The notes under the pieces are model-generated. The model searched no databases. It had not been told where the DNA came from and was given only the letters and a program-made list of their open reading frames with translations. Below, piece after piece: positions 1 to 57,243 of a stretch of 64,000 nt of DNA (its first letter is position 1; each line of letters opens with the position of its first letter). The position numbers were made by a program, and so were the translations under genes. This DNA is from Escherichia coli (GTDB taxonomy: Bacteria > Pseudomonadota > Gammaproteobacteria > Enterobacterales > Enterobacteriaceae). The DNA lies in the NCBI RefSeq assembly GCF_022846255.1, contig NZ_AP025682.1. One strand, written 5' to 3'.

Positions 1-749
1 GGTTTTATTCCCAGTGCGCAAAATATGATTTTATTGGCTCACGGCGTGATGGTGGATTTGCCGAATATATTGTCGTTAAGCGAAACAATGTCTTTGCACT
101 ACCTGCGGATATGCCTATTGAGGATGGCGCTTTTATTGAACCGATTACTGTTGGCCTGCATGCGTTCCATTTAGCGCAAGGATGTGAGAATAAAAACGTT
201 ATTATTATTGGTGCCGGAACCATTGGCCTGCTGGCAATTCAGTGCGCTGTCGCGTTGGGAGCAAAGAGTGTGACGGCTATCGACATTAGCTCAGAAAAAC
301 TGGCACTGGCAAAATCTTTCGGTGCGATGCAAACATTTAACAGCCGTGAAATGAGCGCGCCGCAAATACAGGGCGTTTTACGCGATCTGCGCTTTAATCA
401 GCTTATCCTCGAGACGGCTGGCGTCCCGCAAACCGTCGAACTGGCGGTAGAGATTGCCGGTCCTCATGCCCAACTGGCGCTGGTAGGCACGTTGCATCAG
501 GATCTGCATTTAACATCGGCAACGTTTGGCAAAATATTGCGTAAAGAGCTGACGGTTATCGGCAGTTGGATGAACTACTCCAGCCCTTGGCCGGGGCAGG
601 AGTGGGAAACGGCGAGCCGGTTGCTGACAGAACGTAAGTTAAGCCTGGAGCCATTAATCGCTCACCGTGGAAGCTTTGAAAGCTTCGCCCAGGCGGTGCG
701 TGACATCGCTCGTAATGCCATGCCGGGCAAAGTGTTGCTCATTCCCTGA
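1..749 (+). CDS. gatD: galactitol-1-phosphate 5-dehydrogenase (Zn-dependent alcohol dehydrogenase family), 5'-truncated by the window start; frame begins at nt 3
   Basis: The open frame runs from nt 3 with no stop until 749. The translation (FYSQCAKYDFIGSRRDGGFAEYIVVK...GKVLLIP) matches the GatD C-terminal half, including the GAGTIG Rossmann motif. Confidence 0.9.
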   Translation, partial: FYSQCAKYDFIGSRRDGGFAEYIVVKRNNVFALPADMPIEDGAFIEPITVGLHAFHLAQGCENKNVIIIGAGTIGLLAIQCAVALGAKSVTAIDISSEKLALAKSFGAMQTFNSREMSAPQIQGVLRDLRFNQLILETAGVPQTVELAVEIAGPHAQLALVGTLHQDLHLTSATFGKILRKELTVIGSWMNYSSPWPGQEWETASRLLTERKLSLEPLIAHRGSFESFAQAVRDIARNAMPGKVLLIP

Positions 750-754
750 AACCG

Positions 755-785
755 CGGGCCAGCGTGATGCTGGCCCGGTATTGTG
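755..785 (+). terminator. putative intrinsic terminator after gatD (9-bp GC-rich stem cgggccagc/gctggcccg, loop gtgat, then T-containing tail)
   Basis: Perfect inverted repeat immediately 3' of the gatD stop codon, read directly from the sequence. Confidence 0.4.
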
Positions 786-848
786 CAAAACAGATCATTC
801 ACCAATGGTCCCCCTTCGTTTACACTAGCCACAATTGAATATGGGTAA

Positions 849-1628
849 ATGACGATGAATTCATTCGAGCGAAGGAATAAGATCATCCAATTAGTGAATG
901 AACAGGGAACCGTGCTTGTTCAGGATCTGGCGGGAGTATTTGCTGCCTCGGAAGCGACAATCCGTGCCGATTTGCGCTTTCTCGAACAAAAAGGCGTGGT
1001 TACGCGCTTTCATGGCGGTGCGGCGAAAATAATGTCCGGTAATAGTGAAACCGAGACCCAGGAAGTCGGGTTTAAAGAGCGATTTCAGCTCGCCAGCGCG
1101 CCAAAAAACAGAATAGCGCAGGCGGCAGTCAAAATGATCCACGAAGGGATGACCGTTATTCTCGACAGCGGAAGTACGACAATGCTTATCGCCGAAGGAT
1201 TAATGACCGCCAAAAATATCACGGTGATTACCAACAGTCTCCCGGCAGCATTTGCCCTTTCCGAAAATAAAGACATTACTCTGGTCGTCTGCGGTGGGAC
1301 CGTCCGCCATAAAACACGCTCGATGCATGGCTCCATTGCTGAGCGTTCATTGCAGGATATTAATGCCGATTTAATGTTTGTCGGTGCTGATGGTATTGAT
1401 GCGGTTAATGGTATTACGACCTTTAATGAAGGCTATTCGATTAGCGGGGCGATGGTCACAGCCGCAAATAAAGTGATTGCCGTTCTCGATTCATCGAAAT
1501 TTAATCGTCGCGGTTTTAATCAGGTACTGCCAATCGAAAAAATTGACATTATTATTACCGATGATGCTGTGTCTGAGGTGGATAAACTGGCATTGCAGAA
1601 GACACGGGTAAAGTTAATTACGGTGTAG
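849..1628 (+). CDS. gatR: DeoR-family transcriptional repressor of the galactitol operon; appears intact (259 aa)
   Basis: Uninterrupted ORF with an N-terminal DeoR HTH (QDLAGVFAASEATIRADLRFLEQKG) and a C-terminal sugar-phosphate-binding domain, directly downstream of gatD. The start could be 849 or 855. Confidence 0.85.
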   Translation: MTMNSFERRNKIIQLVNEQGTVLVQDLAGVFAASEATIRADLRFLEQKGVVTRFHGGAAKIMSGNSETETQEVGFKERFQLASAPKNRIAQAAVKMIHEGMTVILDSGSTTMLIAEGLMTAKNITVITNSLPAAFALSENKDITLVVCGGTVRHKTRSMHGSIAERSLQDINADLMFVGADGIDAVNGITTFNEGYSISGAMVTAANKVIAVLDSSKFNRRGFNQVLPIEKIDIIITDDAVSEVDKLALQKTRVKLITV

Positions 1629-1640
1629 TATTGTTCTGTA

Positions 1641-1672
1641 TGCCGGATAAGGTGTTTACACCGCATCCGGCA
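1641..1672. repeat. REP-like palindromic element (tgccggataagg...ccgcatccggca)
   Basis: GCCGGATAAGG / CCGCATCCGGC inverted repeat typical of enterobacterial REP sequences, between the convergent gatR and yegS. Confidence 0.5.
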
Positions 1673-1709
1673 TTACGGATTCTCCCTGGTTCAACAGAGA
1701 ATAGTTTGA

Positions 1710-2609
1710 TTAACGCAATAATGGACAATCTGGTGGTAATCGACAACGCAACGCCGCCGGAAGTATTTCAATATGGAAGTTTTGCCCACTCAACGGTTCG
1801 CCATCAAGATTAAAAGTGATTTCGTGTGGGGCTTGTATATCAAACCACGACGAAGCGCCTTCGATAATATTCGGGTTATCTTCGTCAGATTTTAATGTTG
1901 ATACGAGAGCCGGAAGAATTTCATCGCCGGTAAAAATGCGCAGTTGCAGCAAGCCATCGTTAATTAACGCGTTCGGGCACAATTGCTGACCGCCACCGGC
2001 CTGACGCCCGTTACCAATACCAATGACCAGGGCGTCACCTTGCCAGTGAAAGTTTTCACCGCGGATTTCACAACGGTCCGGTTGCAGAGTATCCATGCGC
2101 ATTAAGCCATGAATGATGTAAGAGACGCCACCCAGCGCGGCTTTTAATTTTTCCGGCGTTTCTGTGGTAATACGCGTCCCAAATCCGCCTGTCGCCATAT
2201 TAATAAAACAGGTTTGTTTGTTGACCTGCGCCATATCTATCGCAATGGCGTTACCGGCAATTGCCAGTTTCAGCGCCTTATCCAGTGCCTCAGGAATCCC
2301 TACACTGGTGGCAAAATCATTGGCGGTTCCTAATGGCAAAATTCCCAGCGCGGGTATGTCATCCCCCTCACACTGAATCAACGCCGTAGAAACTTCATTA
2401 ATGGTGCCATCGCCACCACCGGCAATCACCGTTGCGACGCCCAACTTCCGGGCCTCCTCTACATATCGTGCGGCATCGCCTTTCTCCCAGGTGACCCGCA
2501 CATGGATCGTCATTCCTTCCTCACGCAACAGCATAATTGCTTCGCGCAAGGGTAAATTGTCAGTACTTTTGCCATTAAGAATCAGTAAGCTGGCGGGAAA
2601 TTCTGCCAT
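1710..2609 (-). CDS. yegS: lipid kinase YegS (diacylglycerol-kinase-like catalytic domain)
   Basis: 299-aa ORF starting [15 protein letters not shown] with a GGDGT motif; matches my recollection of E. coli YegS. Confidence 0.92.
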
Positions 2610-3023
2610 GATCGTATGTGCCTTTATGATTGGTCTGTAGATAGTGTAGAGCAGAAAAGAAAAGGTAGAGTCAGAACAGGATGAAAGTCGGAGGATAAAA
2701 AGTCAGTTCAAGTATGGAAGATTCAGTGGTTACCACCAGGAGCTTGCAATGGGGACAGCGAATACTAACGGCAGCCACCGATAAATTTCAAAAAAGAGCA
2801 TATACCTAATATTCAACTAAACAGTGGCATCTTCAATATACTATTAAAAATATATTAACCCCCCCATGGGGTTACCCGGAAGGGCATCCGTGTATGTAAT
2901 TCCTACTTATGTAGGAAATGTTGTACAGAACATTTATTATAATCCTATTCAAATATAATAATCATGCCATTATTATATTTAAACACCAGAGCGTGTCGTT
3001 GGTATTTAATGGGGGAAGGTAAG

Positions 3024-3341
3024 ATGAAAAAGATAGCTGCTATATCATTAATTAGTGTTTTTCTTATGTCTGGTTGTGCTGTGCATAATGATGAGACAAG
3101 TATCGGTAAATTTGGCCTTGCATATAAAAGTAATATTCAGCGTAAACTCGATAACCAATACTACACCGAAGCCGAAGCTTCTTTAGCCAGGGGCAGAATT
3201 TCTGGTGCAGAAAATATAGTAAAAAATGATGCAGCTCATTTCTGTGTTACTCAGGGAAAAAAAATGCAGATAGTTGACCTGAAGACAGAAGGTGCAGGAT
3301 TACATGGCGTCGCTCGTCTGACATTCAAATGTGGAGAGTGA
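3024..3341 (+). CDS. yegR: small lipoprotein YegR
   Basis: Start ATG at 3024 preceded by a ggaagg RBS; signal peptide with lipobox (FLMSGC); 105 aa, consistent with YegR. The supplied ORF (2964) has a 20-aa N-terminal extension that I reject. Confidence 0.8.
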   Translation: MKKIAAISLISVFLMSGCAVHNDETSIGKFGLAYKSNIQRKLDNQYYTEAEASLARGRISGAENIVKNDAAHFCVTQGKKMQIVDLKTEGAGLHGVARLTFKCGE

Positions 3342-3498
3342 GAATATTTTTTGGTAAGCGTCAAACATGCGCGTTCTGGCTGTGCGTAACCGGAACCTGT
3401 GCGAGCACGATGCCAATAAGTGAAAGGCATCGTGCTATGAGGGGAGATTCTATCGATGTGGTCAATGGAAGACGGTTACCAGGATACGGCTTATGCAT

Positions 3499-3585
3499 AA
3501 AAAATAAGCCCGTGTAAGGGAGATTACACAGGCTAAGGAGGTGGTTCCTGGTACAGCTAGCATTTTATGGGTTATGTTTTTCAGC
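3499..3585 (-). ncRNA. cyaR: CyaR (RyeE) Hfq-dependent sRNA
   Basis: The reverse complement of 3499-3585 matches the 87-nt CyaR sequence as I recall it (GCTGAAAAACATAACCCATAAAATGCTAGCTGTACCAGGAACCACCTCCTTAGCC...CGGGCTTATTTTTT), including its intrinsic terminator, and lies immediately 3' of yegQ as expected. Confidence 0.85.
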
Positions 3586-3619
3586 GAAACGGATGATAAC
3601 CTTAATAAATGCAGCTGTA

Positions 3620-3635
3620 TGTGATCGGTTTCTAA
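3620..3635 (-). promoter_or_regulatory. putative class II CRP site of the cyaR promoter (TGTGA-N6-TCTAA on plus strand)
   Basis: A TGTGA half-site plus a degenerate partner, centred about 42 bp upstream of the CyaR 5' end; CyaR is known to be CRP-activated. Confidence 0.5.
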
Positions 3636-3669
3636 GAATTTTCCATCCGGGAAAAATAATCGAAATTAA

Positions 3670-5031
3670 TCACTTACCGTGGGGGTTACGCGTGGTTTCC
3701 CCGGAGAAATTACGCATCAGCAGCGCGTAATTTAGCTCAAGATCCTGCGGCACCGGGATCCACACAGTATAACCATCGCCCGGTGCGACCGGCATTGCTT
3801 CGCCTTTGGCGTTTTCCATATGCTCAAGGGTAAAGTTAATGTTCCCTTGCGGCGTCATCAGCTCAAGGCTGTCGCCAACGGAGAATTTATTTTTCACCGC
3901 TACCGCCGCGAGGTCGCCCTTGCGCTCACCGGTAAACTCACCAACAAACTGCTGGCGGTCAGAAACTGAATAACCGTATTCGTAGTTCTGATAATCGTCG
4001 TGAGTATGACGACGCAGGAAACCTTCGGTATAGCCACGATGCGCCAGACCTTCCAGAGTTTCCAGCAGGCTGGTATCGAACGGTTTGCCCGCAGCGGCAT
4101 CATCGATAGCTTTACGGTAAACCTGCGCGGTGCGTGCGCAATAGTAGAAAGATTTGGTACGACCTTCGATTTTCAGCGAATGCACGCCCATTTTGGTCAG
4201 GCGTTCTACATGGGCGATGGCGCGCAGATCTTTCGAGTTCATGATGTAAGTGCCGTGCTCATCTTCAAACGCGGTCATATACTCGCCCGGACGCTGGGCT
4301 TCTTCGATCATAAACACTTTGTCGGTTGGCGCGCCGATACCCAGCGTCGGCTCAACATTTTGCACCGGAATCGGCTCGTACTTGTGTACGATGTTGCCAA
4401 CGTCATCTTCTTTCCCTTCCTGGACGTTGTACTCCCAGCGGCAGGCGTTGGTGCAGGTACCCTGGTTCGGGTCGCGCTTGTTGATATAGCCAGAGAGCAG
4501 GCAGCGACCGGAGTAGGCCATGCACAGCGCGCCGTGAACGAAGATCTCGATCTCCATATCCGGCACCTGATTGCGGATCTCTTCAATCTCTTCCAGCGAC
4601 AGCTCGCGAGAGAGGATCACGCGGGTCAGTCCCATTTGCTGCCAGAATTTCACCGTCGCCCAGTTCACGGCGTTAGCCTGTACCGAGAGATGGATCGGCA
4701 TTTCAGGGAAGTGCTCGCGCACCAGCATAATCAGCCCCGGATCGGACATAATCAGCGCATCCGGCCCCATTTCCACCACCGGTTTCAGGTCACGGATAAA
4801 GGTTTTCAGCTTGGCGTTGTGCGGTGCAATGTTGACCACAACATAAAACTTTTTCCCCAGCGCGTGGGCTTCATTGATGCCGAGCTGAAGATTTTCGTGG
4901 TTGAATTCGTTGTTGCGCACACGCAGGGAGTAACGCGGCTGGCCCGCATAAACAGCATCTGCGCCATAAGCGAAAGCGTAACGCATATTTTTCAGCGTTC
5001 CCGCCGGGGAAAGGAGTTCCGGTTTAAACAT
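3670..5031 (-). CDS. yegQ: peptidase U32-family protein YegQ (TrhP, tRNA ho5U34 hydroxylation)
   Basis: 453-aa ORF with U32 family signatures (MFKPELLSPAG...collagenase-like); length and position as expected for yegQ. Confidence 0.92.
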   Translation of the reverse strand: MFKPELLSPAGTLKNMRYAFAYGADAVYAGQPRYSLRVRNNEFNHENLQLGINEAHALGKKFYVVVNIAPHNAKLKTFIRDLKPVVEMGPDALIMSDPGLIMLVREHFPEMPIHLSVQANAVNWATVKFWQQMGLTRVILSRELSLEEIEEIRNQVPDMEIEIFVHGALCMAYSGRCLLSGYINKRDPNQGTCTNACRWEYNVQEGKEDDVGNIVHKYEPIPVQNVEPTLGIGAPTDKVFMIEEAQRPGEYMTAFEDEHGTYIMNSKDLRAIAHVERLTKMGVHSLKIEGRTKSFYYCARTAQVYRKAIDDAAAGKPFDTSLLETLEGLAHRGYTEGFLRRHTHDDYQNYEYGYSVSDRQQFVGEFTGERKGDLAAVAVKNKFSVGDSLELMTPQGNINFTLEHMENAKGEAMPVAPGDGYTVWIPVPQDLELNYALLMRNFSGETTRNPHGK

Positions 5032-5133
5032 AATTCTCTCGTTCTGATGACAGGTCAGATCCGCTTCACCTGATGAAGCGGTTAGGGGAGTGCCCCCACT
5101 TTAAGGGCGGGCATTGTAGCGCAATCGGCGGGT

Positions 5134-5430
5134 TTAGCTCCAGTGTAAATGTCTGGAGGCGTCCTGGTTTTGGTTAAGGATACGAATGACGATAATTTCC
5201 TCTGGTGATTGCAGGAAATAAATTACGTGGCGTTCAAAAGGAAGAACAAAAATACCTTCGCCTAATTCAGGTCTGGGTGTACCTATATTATTGTTACTCA
5301 GAATCTGGAGAACGTCTGAAAGATGTTCCACATATCTGTCGGCTTGTGGTTCGCCGAAATGGTGATAGCTGTAATACCAGATGCCTTCTAAATCCTCATT
5401 GGCTTTTGGCATGAGTTTTATAGTACGCAC
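5134..5430 (-). CDS. RelE/ParE-superfamily type II toxin (ParE-like)
   Basis: About 92-98 aa; ParE-like segments (EDLEGIWYY..FGEPQADRYVEHL...HVIYFLQSPEEIIVIRIL); directly downstream of, and nearly abutting, an RHH antitoxin ORF. Start is either GTG at 5430 or ATG at 5412. Confidence 0.75.
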   Translation of the reverse strand: MRTIKLMPKANEDLEGIWYYSYHHFGEPQADRYVEHLSDVLQILSNNNIGTPRPELGEGIFVLPFERHVIYFLQSPEEIIVIRILNQNQDASRHLHWS

Positions 5431-5431
5431 A

Positions 5432-5683
5432 TTATTTCCTTATCCCTGCTTTCACCTTCCGTAAAAACGCGTCCTTTTCCCACGGCTGAGCTTCACCACT
5501 ACTCAACCCTTCAGCGAGCATGTCACGTAACGCTTGCAGGCGAGACTCTGCTTGCTTTTCTCGAAGTAAGCGCAGCGACTCACGGATCACTTCGCTTTGG
5601 GTGCGATAGTCGCCGGATTCAATTAAGGACTCGATAAATTCACGCAACTCATCGCCGAGATCAACCGTCATCGTTCTGGCCAT
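5432..5683 (-). CDS. ParD-like (RHH/COG3609) type II antitoxin
   Basis: 83-aa product from ATG at 5683 (MARTMTVDLGDELREFIESLIESGDYRTQSEVIRESLRLLREKQ...); ribbon-helix-helix ParD signature; stop 1 nt before the toxin start. The supplied ORF extends to 5728. Confidence 0.75.
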   Translation of the reverse strand: MARTMTVDLGDELREFIESLIESGDYRTQSEVIRESLRLLREKQAESRLQALRDMLAEGLSSGEAQPWEKDAFLRKVKAGIRK

Positions 5684-5890
5684 TTTACGCCCGCCTGTAA
5701 GTAAAAATCTTACATCAGTGTATTTCATAAACCGGATAGCGTCACGAAAGTATTAGAAGATATTTTGGCATATGAACATGTTCAGGAAGATAAGTATGGG
5801 ATGGTAAACAAAGAAAGCACAACGAGTGCTTGTCAGTGCCCACTATTTTAATGGCGGAGGTTAATCTTAATTATCAATAACTAAGAGTTG

Positions 5891-5929
5891 TTTTGATATA
5901 AAGCCGGACGCCAACAACCCACGCCCGGC
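5891..5929 (-). terminator. putative intrinsic terminator downstream of yegP
   Basis: On the minus strand a GC-rich hairpin (gccgggcg...cgtccggc) followed by TTTATATCAAAA lies immediately 3' of the yegP stop. Confidence 0.5.
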
Positions 5930-5936
5930 ATCGTAA

Positions 5937-6269
5937 TTACGTATTGTCTTTTACCGTCTGACTTGTGCCATTGGCTTTAACGGAGGCAATTCCGGTTTCA
6001 CGAGATTGCGCGGTGGCGTACATCTGGCTGGAGCCGATAATTTGATGATTGGCGGCTTTCAGATTGAAATAGAATTTGCCGTTGCTTGCCGTTTTTTTCT
6101 CATAGCGTTCTTCTTGCGGGCTGTTGCTACGTACCGACGCGATGCCCTTTTCCGCAGAGGCTTTTGAGGTATACAGCTCGCTGGTGAGGATAGTCTCACC
6201 ATTGCCCGCTTTTAGCACAAACCGGAACTGATTATCACTGCTCTTACTGAGTTCAAACCAACCAGCCAT
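5937..6269 (-). CDS. yegP: UPF0339/DUF1508 tandem-repeat small protein YegP
   Basis: 110 aa from ATG at 6269 with a strong RBS (aaggagtcATG); MAGWFELSKSSDNQFRFVLKAGNGE... followed by an internal repeat (KFYFNLKAANHQIIGSSQMY). Confidence 0.85.
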   Translation of the reverse strand: MAGWFELSKSSDNQFRFVLKAGNGETILTSELYTSKASAEKGIASVRSNSPQEERYEKKTASNGKFYFNLKAANHQIIGSSQMYATAQSRETGIASVKANGTSQTVKDNT

Positions 6270-6448
6270 AATGACTCCTTGATTGAAATTGCGTATCGAA
6301 AACAGCATCTAAAGGTACTGTTTGCCAATTAAAGTATGAGCGATTTTCTGGTGCCTGCCAGGGCGGAGAGATAATGTCAGTTTGCTGACCATGCGTGGGA
6401 TAATGTTGCCGGATCTGGTCTGAAGGCCATCTCCGGCAGGTAAAAATG

Positions 6449-7171
6449 TTAAACGATGCGGCAGGCATCGGCTTCCCAGCGGTAACCGACGCCGTAAACG
6501 GCGCGGATAAATGACTGTTCGGCGTCGAGAGATTCCAGCTTGCGGCGCAGGTTTTTAATGTGGCTGTCGATGGTACGGTCAGTTACCACGCGGTAGTCGT
6601 CATAAAGATGGTTCAGCAACTGCTCGCGGGAGAACACTTTTCCTGGTTCATGAGAGAGCGTTTTCAGCAGACGAAATTCTGCAGGCGTCAGGTCAAGCAT
6701 TTTACCGCGCCATGAAGCCTGAAAACGACCTTCGTCGATAATCAACGGGCTTTCAGCATCCTGTTGCTGCAACTCACGCTGCGGTTTGCAACGGCGCAAA
6801 ATGGTTTTGACGCGCGCTACCACTTCCCGTGGGCTGTACGGTTTGCAGATGTAGTCATCTGCGCCAATCTCCAGCCCGAGCAGGCGGTCGATCTCTTCGA
6901 TTTTTGCTGTCACCATCACGATCGGAATGTCAGAAAAACGACGAATCTCCCGACACAACGTCAGGCCATCGGTGCCAGGGAGCATCAGATCCAACAGGAT
7001 CAGATCCGGTGGTGTCTGGCGCACATATGGCAGTACCTGATCGCCGTGGCTGATAAGCGTCGGCGCATAGCTCGCAGCACGCAGATAATCAATGAGTAAC
7101 TGTCCCAGCTTCGGTTCATCTTCCACGATCAAAATACGCGGTGTGTTTTCGTCGATTGGTAACTCGGTCAT
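6449..7171 (-). CDS. baeR: OmpR-family response regulator BaeR
   Basis: 240 aa; receiver domain ([11 protein letters not shown]...[11 protein letters not shown]) plus winged-helix output domain; overlaps the baeS stop. Confidence 0.95.
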
Positions 7172-8571
7172 ACTTCTCTCTGTAAATCCCGTTCCAGCGG
7201 TAACTCTACTGTAATGCTTACCCCGCCAAAAGGCGAATGGGCAGCAATAATGCGACCATTATGTGCTTCAACAATGTTCAGGCAAATCGCCAGCCCCAGC
7301 CCGGAACCGCCGCTGGCTCGGTTGCGGGAGCCTTCGGTGCGATAAAAACGTTCAAACAATTTTTGTAGCTGATCGTCACTGACGCCCGGCGCGCTGTCGG
7401 CAAAGGTCAGGCGCACCGTTTTGTCGTGCTGCTCGGCAGAGATTATCAGGCTACCGCCGCTGTCAGTGTAGCGCAGGCTGTTTTCCAGTAAGTTATTGAA
7501 TAACTGCATTAAACGGTCGCGATCGCCAAATACGGTAATACTGTCTGGCAGGGAAAATTGCAGTTTCAGGCCACGGCTGGCGAATCGTTCGCGAAATGCG
7601 CCGCCCGCCACTTCCAGCAGTGGGATCAAATCTACCGGTGCTTTTTGATAGGCGAGAGCGCCTTCATCAGACATCGACAACTGATGGAGATCGTCAACCA
7701 GTTTGGTCAGTGTACCGACCTCCGCCTGTAAAGACGCCACCGTCTCCGGCGTGAATTTACGCACGCCATCCTGAATGGCTTCCAGTTCACCGCGCAGCAC
7801 CGCTAATGGCGTACGCAGTTCGTGAGAAATATCGGCCATAAAATCGCGCCGCATTTGCTGGTTTTTCTCCAGCGTGCTGGCAAGCTGGTTGAAGTCTTGC
7901 GCCAGTTTGCCCAATTCATCTTCACTGGTGGGCGTCACGCGAGTAGTGAAATCGCCCGCTGCCAGTTTGTGTGTACCGTCCACCAGTCGTTTGACCGGAG
8001 CCAGCAAACCGCGCGCCAGTGGGAATGTCGCCAGCGCCGCTAACAAGGTAGATAAAGCGACAATCAGCCAACTGGTTTGCCTCTGTTGTCTGTCAAAATT
8101 GATATCGGTATTGCGGGTCAGTCGTTCAACAGGGGAGGCGATCACCGCACCCACTTCCGCCCCATTGACCATAATGGGCCGCCGTGTGCCGTCTGGTGGA
8201 ATCGGTGCTCGCGGGCCAACCAGCACTTTGTTGTTTTGATCAACCACCCAGAATTGCGTGCGCCAACCGTGTGGCGGCATACCGGGGCCGGGCTTATCTT
8301 CGTTGTTATCATGCTCCAGCGAACGTAGGATCTGAAATACAAAGCGATCGTTATTACGCAGGAAGCGCCAGTTCCCGTGCTGGGCGTACTGCTCACCAAG
8401 CGCATCGCCGAGCATTTGCAGCCGTTGTTCATTACCATGCTTGATGTAATCAATAAAGCCACGCTCAAAACTGATACGCACCGCCCAGTGCATACTGATC
8501 AGCAAGACAATGCAGGTGGCGAAAATCGCCAGAAACAGTTTGCCGGTAATACCGGGTCGCCAGAACTTCAT
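7168..8571 (-). CDS. baeS: envelope-stress sensor histidine kinase BaeS
   Basis: 467 aa; two transmembrane segments, HAMP, H-box ([11 protein letters not shown]) and HATPase domain. Confidence 0.95.
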
Positions 8572-9983
8572 TGCGCGCTCCTTTTTCGCCGCGAAATAGC
8601 GACATTTTGATGCGTATCGTTCGGCACTCTGGCAAAGATGAACGCCGGAAGGGCGATGATAAACGCCATGCTAAGCCAGGTGTACATAAAGACGGTTTGT
8701 GTGGTGCCGCTGTCGACGCTGACATGCTGTGAACCAAAAAGTCCCAGCAACAGCCCGGCGATAGTGACGCCGATACTCATCGACAATTGCATAATCATCG
8801 ACAGCAGGCTGTTTCCGCTGCTCGCCAGATTGTCCGGGAGATCTTTCAGCGTCAGGGTGTTCATGGAGGAGAAACGCGTTGAGTTGACCATTCCTTGTAA
8901 AAACAGGACGAACGGTAAAACGTAGTACCAGCCCAGCAGCGCGGTGGTCATAAACAACATGGTGACCAGCGACAGACCCAGCGTGGTCGCTACCAGTACC
9001 CGACGATAACCAAAGCGATTCACCACCTGTACCACAATTCGCTTCATTCCCATGCTGCCAAGCACCATCGGGATCATCATCAGTCCGGCATGAAAAGGCG
9101 AGAAACCGAGGCCAATTTGCAGGAAAACCGGCGTCATAAAGGGCAACATGCCGCTACCGATACGTCCGGCAAAGCTCCCCGCCAGGCCCAGTGAAAAGGT
9201 ACGAGTGCGGAACAGTTTCAGACTGAAAAGAGCGCGGTTGTTATTTCTGGCGTGCAGCAGATAAAGCACCAGTGCCACCACACCAACTGTGACCAGGCCA
9301 GCAATCGCCAGCGGCGATAAACCTGTACCTTTACTGCCGTCCAGCGCCAGGGTTAATACCGCCATGCCAACCGCCAGCAATAAAAAGCCGGAGAGATCAA
9401 AGCACCGCGTCTGCATGGTGTAGTTCGGCATTAACATCAGTGTGGCGATCGCGCCAATAATCCCCACCGGAATGTTGATCAAAAAGATCCAGTGCCACGA
9501 TGCGTACTCCACCAGCAGACCGCCGAGCGCCGGGCCAAGCAGCGGCCCGACCTGACCGGGCAGCGTGACAAAGGTCATCGCCGCCATATATTGCTCGCGC
9601 GGTACGATTTTCATCACCGTCAACCTACCGACCGGCACCATCATCGCGCCGCCAACGCCCTGTAACGCGCGTGCCAGCAACAGTTCGTTCAGCGTGCCGG
9701 AAAGCGCGCAAAACAGTGAACCGAGAGTAAACAGCACGATGGCGGTAAAGAAAATATTGCGCACGCCGACTTTGTCCGCCAGCCAGCCGCTGGCGGGCAG
9801 CATCACCGCCACGGTCAGTACATAAGAGACAATGACCATGTGCATATGCAACGGACTTTCCCCGAGGCTTTGCGCCATTGAGGGAAGCGCGGTGTTAACG
9901 ATGGTGGTGTCCAGCGACTGCATAAAGAAGCCGAAAGCCACAATCCACAATTGCCAGCGGGTGCTGTCGGGAAGATCTGTCAT
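8568..9983 (-). CDS. mdtD: MFS transporter MdtD
   Basis: 471 aa, 14-TM major facilitator profile; overlaps the baeS start by 4 nt. Confidence 0.93.
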
Positions 9984-17669: not shown

Positions 17670-17815
17670 AGCCCCTCCCGAGGAAGGGGCCTTAAATAAG
17701 GAAAGGGTCATGATGAAGTGGATCATCATCGTGGTGCTCTTAGTGATTAGCTACCCAGCATACTAAGACTACCAGGGCGGGGGAAACCCCGCTCTACCCT
17801 CACTCCTGAAAGTAT
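17670..17815 (-). ncRNA. sibA: SibA-like antisense sRNA (type I antitoxin); ends approximate
   Basis: The minus strand carries an intrinsic terminator (aaggcccc-ttcctcggga-ggggctt + TTTTCCGTTT) at about 17675-17704, antisense to and fully overlapping the ibs ORF. The 5' end is not determinable from sequence. Confidence 0.5.
17710..17766 (+). CDS. ibsA: Ibs-family hydrophobic toxic peptide, 18 aa (MMKWIIIVVLLVISYPAY)
   Basis: Translated directly from the sequence; RBS aaggaaagg upstream; characteristic Ibs peptide. Confidence 0.7.
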   Translation: MMKWIIIVVLLVISYPAY

Positions 17816-17994
17816 GCCTTCACGGTCCAATTGTCAATCCGCAGACTTTGCAGTCTGCGATCCTGCCAGCAAATATTCTTTGCGAGTCGTTACGCAATAA
17901 TCACACTTGAAACTATTTTATCCGCAAGTCAGCGATAGACTGCATACAGGGCGAAAGGAGGTAAGCCGAAGATTTCAGCGGGACGCTGAAACGG

Positions 17995-18140
17995 GAAAGC
18001 CCCTCCCGAGGAAGGGGCCTTAAATAAGGAAAGGGTCATGATGAAGCTACTCATCATCGTGGTGCTCTTAGTCATTAGCTGGCCAGCTTACTAAGACTAC
18101 CAGGGCGGGGGAAACCCCGCTCTACCCTCACTCCTGAAAT
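17995..18140 (-). ncRNA. sibB: SibB-like antisense sRNA (type I antitoxin); ends approximate
   Basis: Second copy of the same terminator hairpin on the minus strand at about 17997-18022, antisense to the second ibs ORF. Confidence 0.5.
18038..18094 (+). CDS. ibsB: Ibs-family hydrophobic toxic peptide, 18 aa (MMKLLIIVVLLVISWPAY)
   Basis: Translated directly from the sequence; second repeat unit. Confidence 0.7.
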   Translation: MMKLLIIVVLLVISWPAY

Positions 18141-18311
18141 TATGTCACTCCGCCCTTAGTGTCAATCGACGGCTCTCCGTTCTTGCGAGGCGAATAGCAA
18201 AATTTTCTGCGCCGCCGGGCCTAATTCTGAAAGTTTCTTCGTTTGCTCTTATTTCATTATTGCAATCGGTATGATACCGGACCTCAATAATTCTCTAAGA
18301 AAGGATTTCTT

Positions 18312-29092: not shown

Positions 29093-30946
29093 ATGAGACG
29101 ATTTCTGACGACGCTGATGATACTCCTGGTCGTGCTGGTGGCCGGGTTATCTGCGTTAGTGTTGCTGGTGAATCCGAATGATTTCCGCGACTATATGGTC
29201 AAGCAAGTTGCTGCACGTAGCGGTTATCAATTGCAGCTCGACGGGCCACTGCGTTGGCACGTCTGGCCGCAGCTTAGTATCCTCTCCGGGCGAATGTCTC
29301 TCACTGCCCAGGGCGCGAGCCAGCCACTGGTTCGCGCAGACAACATGCGTCTGGACGTGGCGCTTTTACCACTGCTGAGTCATCAACTGAGCGTTAAGCA
29401 GGTGATGCTAAAAGGGGCAGTGATCCAACTGACGCCGCAGACGGAAGCGGTGCGCAGTGAAGACGCTCCGGTTGCACCGCGCGACAATACCTTGCCGGAT
29501 CTGTCAGACGATCGCGGATGGTCGTTTGATATATCCAGTCTTAAGGTGGCGGACAGCGTGCTGGTGTTCCAGCATGAAGATGACGAGCAGGTGACAATCC
29601 GCAATATCCGCCTGCAAATGGAACAAGATCCCCAACATCGTGGCTCATTTGAGTTTTCCGGGCGGGTTAATCGCGATCAGCGCGATCTCACGATATCCCT
29701 TAACGGTACGGTGGATGCTTCTGATTATCCGCATGATTTAACGGCGGCTATTGAACAAATTAACTGGCAGTTGCAGGGTGCCGATTTACCAAAACAAGGT
29801 ATTCAGGGGCAGGGGAGTTTCCAGGTCCAGTGGCAGGAGTCACATAAACGCCTTTCATTTAACCAAATTAGTTTGACCGCCAATGACAGTACGCTGAGCG
29901 GGCAAGCACAGGTCACGTTGACAGAGAAACCGGAATGGCAGCTGAGACTGCAATTCCCGCAACTGAATCTTGACAACCTCATCCCCCTTAATGAAACAGC
30001 GAATGGTGAGAACGGTGCCGCGCAGCAAGGGCAGAGCCAATCAACGTTGCCGCGCCCGGTCATTTCTTCGCGTATTGATGAACCGGCCTATCAGGGACTG
30101 CAAGGCTTTACGGCTGATATTTTGTTGCAGGCCAGTAACGTGCGCTGGCGCGGAATGAATTTTACAGATGTTGCCACGCAAATGACCAACAAGTCGGGTT
30201 TGCTGGAAATTACTCAACTGCAGGGCAAACTTAACGGTGGACAGGTTTCACTGCCGGGCACGCTGGACGCGACATCAATAAATCCGCGGATAAACTTCCA
30301 GCCACGGCTGGAAAACGTTGAGATTGGCACCATTCTGAAGGCGTTTAACTATCCGATTTCGTTGACCGGAGAGATGTCACTGGCTGGTGATTTCTCCGGT
30401 GCTGACATAGATGCCGACGCATTCCGCCACAACTGGCAAGGACAGGCACATGTCGAAATGACCGACACACGCATGGAAGGGATGAACTTCCAGCAGATGA
30501 TTCAGCAAGCGGTAGAACGTAATGGTGGTGATGTGAAGGCCGCTGAAAACTTCGATAACGTGACGCGTCTTGACCGCTTTACCACCGATTTGACGTTGAA
30601 GGATGGCGTCGTGACGTTAAACGACATGCAAGGTCAATCGCCAGTGCTGGCGCTGACAGGGGAAGGCATGTTGAATCTGGCAGATCAAACCTGTGACACC
30701 CAGTTTGATATTCGGGTCGTGGGTGGCTGGAACGGGGAAAGCAAACTGATTGATTTCCTCAAAGAAACGCCAGTACCGCTGCGGGTTTATGGCAACTGGC
30801 AGCAACTTAATTACAGCCTGCAAGTGGATCAGTTACTGCGTAAACATCTACAGGATGAAGCAAAACGCCGTCTTAACGACTGGGCCGAGCGGAATAAAGA
30901 TTCCCGCAATGGCAAAGATGTGAAGAAGTTGCTGGAGAAGATGTAG
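29093..30946 (+). CDS. asmA: outer-membrane assembly protein AsmA (AsmA-like lipid-transport family)
   Basis: 617 aa with an N-terminal membrane anchor (LMILLVVLVAGLSALVLLV); downstream of dcd as in E. coli. Confidence 0.92.
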   Translation: MRRFLTTLMILLVVLVAGLSALVLLVNPNDFRDYMVKQVAARSGYQLQLDGPLRWHVWPQLSILSGRMSLTAQGASQPLVRADNMRLDVALLPLLSHQLSVKQVMLKGAVIQLTPQTEAVRSEDAPVAPRDNTLPDLSDDRGWSFDISSLKVADSVLVFQHEDDEQVTIRNIRLQMEQDPQHRGSFEFSGRVNRDQRDLTISLNGTVDASDYPHDLTAAIEQINWQLQGADLPKQGIQGQGSFQVQWQESHKRLSFNQISLTANDSTLSGQAQVTLTEKPEWQLRLQFPQLNLDNLIPLNETANGENGAAQQGQSQSTLPRPVISSRIDEPAYQGLQGFTADILLQASNVRWRGMNFTDVATQMTNKSGLLEITQLQGKLNGGQVSLPGTLDATSINPRINFQPRLENVEIGTILKAFNYPISLTGEMSLAGDFSGADIDADAFRHNWQGQAHVEMTDTRMEGMNFQQMIQQAVERNGGDVKAAENFDNVTRLDRFTTDLTLKDGVVTLNDMQGQSPVLALTGEGMLNLADQTCDTQFDIRVVGGWNGESKLIDFLKETPVPLRVYGNWQQLNYSLQVDQLLRKHLQDEAKRRLNDWAERNKDSRNGKDVKKLLEKM

Positions 30947-30966
30947 GTTACCAGGTGACCTGTCCT

Positions 30967-31007
30967 GTAGGCCTGATAAGACGCGTAAAGCGTCGCATCA
31001 GGCCTAC
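30967..31007. repeat. REP palindrome (gtaggcctgataagacgcg...cgtcgcatcaggcctac)
   Basis: Perfect REP-type inverted repeat between the convergent asmA and yegH. Confidence 0.6.
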
Positions 31008-31013
31008 ATGCCA

Positions 31014-33038: not shown

Positions 33039-33077
33039 CAGTGTGTTGGTAGCTAAAAAGCCAGGGGCGGTAGCGTG
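33039..33077 (+). promoter_or_regulatory. JUMPstart element with ops site (GGCGGTAGCGTG at 33066-33077) in the colanic acid operon leader
   Basis: Exact ops consensus GGCGGTAGnnTG preceded by GGTAGC, about 180 bp upstream of wza; the RfaH-dependent anti-termination signal known for cps operons. Confidence 0.75.
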
Positions 33078-47503: not shown

Positions 47504-47603
47504 CCGTTGAATAATCAACCGGATTAATTCTCCGGTAAATAACGAAAAAACAAAATTGGCCGTTTCGGTCAGGGCCAACTATTGCCTGAAAAAGGGTAAC
47601 GAC

Positions 47604-57204: not shown

Positions 57205-57243
57205 CAGTGCTCTGGTAGCTGTAAAGCCAGGGGCGGTAGCGTG
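57205..57243 (+). promoter_or_regulatory. JUMPstart element with ops site (GGCGGTAGCGTG at 57232-57243) in the O-antigen operon leader
   Basis: Exact ops consensus preceded by GGTAGC, about 75 bp upstream of rmlB; the same 30-nt core (agccaggggcggtagcgtg) as the cps leader copy. Confidence 0.75.

Follow-up and report, generated by a model that had tools for sequence, protein, structure and literature searches.

The preferred attachment site of phage P2 in E. coli C is locI (Barreiro and Haggård-Ljungquist, 1992, as cited in PMC3931495). The core quoted for locI is AAAAAATAAGCCCGTGTAAGGGAGATT, and in E. coli K-12 the site holds what is left of a P2 prophage (PMC3931495). The 3' ends of RNA genes are used as integration sites by other phages, as is the case of ssrA for Fels-2 and SopEΦ and of tRNA-Ile for phage 186, and the phage rebuilds the end of the gene (PMC3448106). 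A second described peculiarity of MG1655 is an IS insertion in gatR that renders the gat operon constitutive; the intact gatR of E. coli HS restored regulation in K-12 (PMC5850726). Regarding the small RNA CyaR, its activation by Crp-cAMP has been reported (PMC9002310). Here we describe the corresponding region in a 64,000-nucleotide stretch of E. coli chromosome (the window, by which we mean this whole stretch) that begins in gatD, reaches the O-antigen cluster and is oriented opposite to K-12. We conclude, with high confidence, that the interval 3342-3669, which is exactly the intergenic region between yegR and yegQ, is the E. coli yegR-cyaR-yegQ region in its ordinary, unoccupied state and that the window strain lacks both K-12 lesions; none of our results speaks against this. 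This finding is already known and common, and it re-derives two well-documented peculiarities of K-12. The only part that might be new is a putative fossil P arm of a P2-like phage on the yegR side of the attachment core.

The GF131 genome is collinear with the window and has the same coordinates across the yegR-yegQ region. The window start cuts gatD, leaving its 3' part (1-749, plus strand), an ORF open to the stop at 749 and annotated in GF131 at the same coordinates. Beyond gatR come yegS, a lipid kinase gene (1710-2609, minus strand; a 299-aa ORF annotated in the collinear GF131), and yegR, which encodes a predicted lipoprotein of 105 aa (3024-3341, plus strand; PF27694), assigned by comparing its translation with K-12 YegR, by annotation and by the Pfam family of its homologues. 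On the other side of the interval lies yegQ/trhP, for a tRNA U34 hydroxylation protein of 453 aa (3670-5031, minus strand; ORF and annotation). Between both genes we found cyaR (ryeE), 87 nt at 3499-3585 on the minus strand, which in the alignment to K-12 b4438 is identical at 87/87 positions. It starts 84 bp past the yegQ/trhP stop on the same strand, a gap of the same length in K-12, and its 3' end is separated from the yegR stop by 157 bp. The initial annotation had placed an 87-nt CyaR just downstream of yegQ, and yegR about 160 bp beyond it; both placements are borne out by these distances.

CyaR is the same throughout as the described CyaR/RyeE RNA (RF00112). The Rfam match at 3502-3587 (minus strand) covers the full model, 1-85, and scores 100.7 bits, above the gathering threshold of 47 (E 6e-19), and no other family matched in a search of 2900-3800 at E ≤ 1. 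The fold has the expected elements, an anti-SD-like loop hairpin (CCACCUCCUU) and the intrinsic terminator, whose hairpin with a stem of 11 bp was located at 3507-3534 (minus strand) by terminator scan and fold and is followed by the U tail UUAUUUUUU. Reading upstream of the 5' end defined in K-12, a putative -10 hexamer, TATCAT, stands 7 nt from the start (3593-3598, minus strand). Pattern scoring also yielded a CRP-like candidate site, TTAGAAACCGATCACA, with 2 mismatches to TGTGA-N6-TCACA and centred near -42 (3620-3635, minus strand). Both the hexamer and the candidate site are identical to K-12. The DNA just 3' of the U-run reads ATGCAT in the window and ACGCGT in K-12, while the RNA itself has no differences. 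Judging from its sequence, CyaR would be expressed and functional in the window strain. A CyaR gene with the same 100.7 bits as in E. coli, together with the exact attachment core, is also present in a 9,688-bp contig of a MAG labelled Collinsella sp., which almost certainly comes from an enterobacterium and was misbinned under an actinobacterium.

The end of cyaR is at the same time the core of the P2 attachment site. The attB core of locI, AAAAAATAAGCCCGTGTAAGGGAGATT, occupies 3499-3525 (read on the plus strand) as an exact match to the annotated attP core of P2, so that the last 27 nt of cyaR are 27/27 identical to it; when phage genomes were searched with the junction sequence, P2 itself matched perfectly over 28 nt at the feature 'attP core'. 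The terminator loop, the 3' arm and the U-run of CyaR are all contained in this core. By the standard mechanism, recombination within an identical core duplicates it. Since the attP core is identical to the end of cyaR, integration rebuilds the 3' end and terminator of the gene, and int lands next to yegR and ogr next to cyaR. Full P2-like prophages with int beside yegR do exist (strain KK19-02, record ON470606), and prophage contigs of IMG/VR include 73 junctions of flank, core and P' arm and 38 junctions of P arm, core and cyaR. The locI of the window would be competent for recombination and open to P2-like phages, and P2 should be able to lysogenise the strain at the site it prefers. Our literature search found no paper explicitly tying cyaR to the P2 attachment site.

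Long matches of two phage-database records, vB_EcoM-720R8 and 'Phage TP', to the host flank were considered as possible phage-borne, host-like DNA and discarded, as host DNA is part of both records: one contains gatR, yegS and yegR, and the other the 3' end of yegR. In E. coli E69 (~2480-2536 of its locus) the core beside cyaR is bordered by a different flank (…GGCGGTGTCAGAACAGGATGAAAGTCGTGGTACA), which in one contig of IMG/VR joins the core beside a P' arm of P2. This flank differs from the usual host flank and also from the P arm of P2, and it may belong to another element that uses the same core.

In the comparison with K-12 the BLAST match breaks exactly at this core. In MG1655 the gap between cyaR and yegR measures 788 bp and holds an annotated 629-bp 'cryptic prophage PR-X' with ogrK and the pseudogene yegZ, the latter a fragment of gpD. 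BLAST of window 1-9000 against K-12 gave four collinear segments, of which 1151-3516 and 3491-5122 overlap by 26 nt (3491-3516); the overlap is the duplicated att core, and K-12 positions 4210-4812 (locus L001) have no counterpart in the window. PR-X is inserted in MG1655 exactly at the core equivalent to that of the window. It is 96.8% identical over all 629 bp to P2 23745-24373, and in terms of P2 it starts within gene D, takes in ogr and the P arm, and reaches the core. The cyaR side of K-12 keeps the full core, the P arm, ogr and the D fragment, and the yegR side keeps a partial core of 19 nt. K-12 descends from a P2-type lysogen at locI. A deletion with one end in gene D and the other in the core on the int side removed the rest of its prophage and left the 629-bp PR-X. 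Within the 64-kb window we found no PR-X or IS3E sequence and, of the P2 D-ogr-att-int-C stretch, only the 28-nt core match, and tblastn of Ogr and gpD against 2600-3700 returned nothing below E 0.8. In the alignment with K-12 that the initial annotation had proposed as a check, K-12 has neither the compact interval nor an intact gatR, and its statement that K-12 carries a P2-like remnant with ogrK and yegZ in this gap is correct.

The spacer of 157 bp from the yegR stop to the cyaR 3' end (3342-3498), delimited by the K-12 comparison and the Rfam scan, constitutes the yegR-side flank of attB and shares 94.3% identity with the K-12 sequence beyond PR-X. A repeat search found in it an inverted repeat with perfect 11-bp arms (AGCACGATGCC / GGCATCGTGCT) around an 11-nt loop (3404-3436, plus strand). 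This hairpin has no U-run and dominates the fold of the spacer on the plus strand, which is unusually stable (-49.3 kcal/mol, z -3.4). By eye, some substitutions of other strains in 3342-3480 look compatible with G·U pairing on the plus strand. Possibly the hairpin forms a structured 3' end of yegR. In some E. coli, 171 AT-rich bp that are absent from the window come directly after the yegR stop (in R2 at 2243-2420 of its locus), and the same stretch is found at ~440-500 of the locus in a cryptic-clade Escherichia genome, corresponding to window 3341/3342. We rejected this longer gap of R2 and others as a second type of phage remnant, given that in the alignment it is an AT-rich indel that directly follows the yegR stop, lies well away from the core and has nothing to do with att. 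In other genera a co-directional ORF of ~110 aa follows the YegR homologues, and the extra 171 bp might be a remnant of such an ORF. Distant proteins of the YegR family (PF27694, 44-88% identity) are encoded at unrelated loci, for example with nitroreductase, Ivy and acs genes as neighbours or among IS elements in an Enterobacter genome; the position of yegR beside cyaR appears to be specific to Escherichia. That YegR is a phage moron was ruled out, as no phage-borne copies were found.

The part of the spacer closest to the core resembles the phage itself. Local alignment and the P2 annotation define a P-arm-like segment at 3439-3482 (plus strand), collinear in P2 with the ogr terminator (its 3' half) and with the Int P-arm site. 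In an alignment of the window, the cryptic-clade Escherichia genome, K-12 and P2, it corresponds to P2 24279-24322 and includes a 15-nt exact run, TCGATGTGGTCAATG. Within this run, TGTGGTCA fits the consensus of the arm-type repeats, tgTGGaCa in P2-type phages (PMC3448106). The second arm repeat is degenerate in the flank, and the IHF segment is deleted, with 16 nt in its place. The yegR-side flank is polymorphic in Escherichia, and longer alleles keep part of the IHF segment. A 28-nt block round the retained repeat is invariant among 24 flank haplotypes, with variation on both sides of it, an invariance that is only suggestive because the selection of flanks required 18/28 nt of the block. 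We tend to believe that the ~60 nt at about 3439-3498 are not naive host DNA and that they derive by decay from the P arm of P2, as the fossil attR which an earlier P2-like prophage left behind. The preserved parts would be half of the ogr terminator and one intact arm-type repeat.

An unlikely alternative is that the resemblance of 3439-3482 to the P arm arose by chance, or that an ancestor of P2 captured host DNA through an aberrant excision. The aligned stretch spans only ~45 nt and is patchy outside the 15-nt exact run, and the local alignment score of 36 has to be read beside one shuffle that reached 32; the shuffles average 15.4 ± 2.2 and 0/2000 reach the observed score. Against this alternative, the match keeps the side of the core and the orientation that it has in P2, its distance from the core is similar, and it covers the annotated Int P-arm site. 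Furthermore, TGTGGTCA fits a consensus common to P2-type phages with other core specificities (PMC3448106) and recurs in the P' arm, and it is therefore argued that the arms are intrinsic to the phage. The cryptic-clade Escherichia genome and a few E. coli alleles, which keep more of the IHF segment, form a decay series, and Kluyvera has the same cyaR core beside an unrelated flank; both observations also speak against this alternative. Searching genome contigs for the exact core, we found it only in E. coli, one cryptic-clade Escherichia, several Kluyvera, one Citrobacter MAG and the one likely misbinned MAG. Other Escherichia did not polarise the ancestral state: beside E. coli, a single cryptic-clade genome of the genus matched, and the YegR homologues of other genera, at unrelated loci, were of no help. 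If the decayed P arm is indeed the correct reading, arm-type sequence flanks the core on both sides in the attL of all present-day lysogens at locI, and the retained repeat might influence the preference for locI, the control of excision or the loss of prophages by short-homology deletion. We consider it improbable that the retained repeat has a functional role. The fossil, if unreported, would add a little to what is known of how P2 chooses its sites, and it illustrates that 'empty' attachment sites can be palimpsests.

How common each state of the site is was surveyed in 5,426 complete E. coli genomes, with class counts that rest on BLAST coverage thresholds and not on alignments looked at individually. 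The empty junction, in which a 141-nt query spanning it matched in one piece, is found in ~4,206/5,426 genomes (~78%). A junction of yegR flank, core, P' arm and int is present in 788 of the 5,426 (~15%), and the K-12-type junction, in which the D fragment meets the partial core, in 357 (~7%); about 72 genomes, by difference, belong to none of these three classes. A first survey, in which the region was joined within 1,250 bp in 4,566 genomes, agrees with 4,206 plus 357. Full-length gatR in one place occurs in at most 4,756/5,426 genomes (~88%), an upper bound, as IS1 insertions are short enough for the search to bridge, and at least one gatR interrupted by IS1 was joined into a single match and counted as full-length. 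The window is the majority state and K-12 is the exception. As a figure for locI in E. coli, the proportions of about 78% empty, 15% occupied and 7% scarred should be useful.

A rival history of the window site is that of a cured lysogen, in which a P2-like prophage once occupied the site in this lineage and left by precise Int/Cox excision. Int/Cox excision regenerates the exact attB; because of this, 'never invaded' and 'precisely excised' are not separable by sequence. The site is in active use, with 788 int-bearing junctions and 357 remnants among the 5,426 genomes, and a precise excision leaves no mark. Yet, empty being the majority state, parsimony needs no gain and loss in the lineage of the window, and we regard this history as quite improbable. 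The initial annotation had called the window the un-invaded state of the locus. This description holds for the recent past, with neither PR-X nor IS3E present, and would probably fail for the deeper one, since the flank is homologous to the P arm of P2 and probably bears an older scar. That the assembly collapsed a prophage or remnant between two 27-bp cores can be practically dismissed: nothing specific speaks for it, normal assemblies do not lose 30 kb through a 27-bp repeat, the same compact junction recurs in thousands of complete genomes, and the window is collinear with GF131 with the same coordinates here.

The second K-12 lesion is equally absent. In the window gatR, encoding the DeoR-family repressor of the galactitol operon, is intact (855-1628, plus strand; 257 aa), as established from the ORF, the domains and the K-12 comparison. 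The ORF is continuous across the point of the K-12 IS3E insertion, its product carries the HTH_DeoR and DeoRC domains, and it is the same gene as in K-12, with a protein identical to the rejoined K-12 halves. The target of IS3E, the triplet GTC at 1151-1153, is present in a single, unoccupied copy; it is duplicated in K-12, where the BLAST segments 1-1153 and 1151-3516 overlap by these 3 nt, and the 1258-bp IS3E of K-12 gatR has no counterpart in the window. The interruption of gatR by an IS in K-12, as claimed by the initial annotation, is confirmed by this element in MG1655, and its claim that the window has neither the remnant nor a broken gatR is upheld by the BLAST breakpoints and the 257-aa ORF. 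K-12 acquired IS3E independently of PR-X. The GatR repressor of the window is predicted to be functional, like that encoded by gatR of E. coli HS. It would be expressed in the window strain, whose gat operon should be repressible, and the catabolism of galactitol should be regulated normally. We also noted that one passage of PMC5850726 names the MG1655 insertion 'IS1' and the RefSeq record names it IS3E, an inconsistency of the literature and not of the sequence.

Other features of the window were noted. Between yegQ and yegP, 1.5 kb from the gap, there is a parE/parD type II toxin-antitoxin cassette (5123-5902, 780 bp) with ORFs at 5134-5430 and 5432-5728, both on the minus strand, where K-12 has ~20 bp. 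The cassette is single-copy and chromosomal in 1,843/5,426 complete E. coli genomes. Since it is present here and K-12 lacks it, the neighbourhood is a mosaic and not uniformly ancestral to K-12. The interval between mdtA and yegL holds two Sib antitoxin RNAs (17695-17837 and 18023-18165, minus strand; 137 and 141 bits), a pair of the same kind as sibA/sibB of K-12; an Ibs toxin ORF is annotated at the Sib region in GF131, and the arrangement of the window and that of GF131 differ there. Between asmA and yegH, GF131 has a 746-bp pair of RelE/ParE-family toxin and HTH antitoxin, where the window has only 68 bp (30945-31013). Ahead of the colanic-acid cluster (wza) and of the O-antigen cluster there are JUMPstart elements, and cpsG is preceded by an algC RNA motif; an RNA-family scan gave these elements at 33039-33077, 47550-47599 and 57205-57243. 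The rfb region (57.6-64 kb) is 98.8% identical to that of GF131, where wzx and wzy carry an O1-family annotation.

Compared with the described systems, the window shares with K-12 PR-X the locus and the core, with homologous flanks on both sides (94-98% identity), and differs in the absence of all 629 bp of the remnant and in having one core instead of the full plus partial core of K-12. With respect to locI of E. coli C, the core is the same as attP and the site is unoccupied, at the chromosomal position of the P2 remnant of K-12; no difference was detected, judged from the core as quoted in PMC3931495. Finally, as in sites of the ssrA and tRNA-Ile type, the core overlaps the 3' terminator of a small-RNA gene, and the phage duplicates the core and leaves the gene intact. 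The target at the cyaR site is an Hfq-type sRNA, in contrast to the tRNA-like RNA of those cases.
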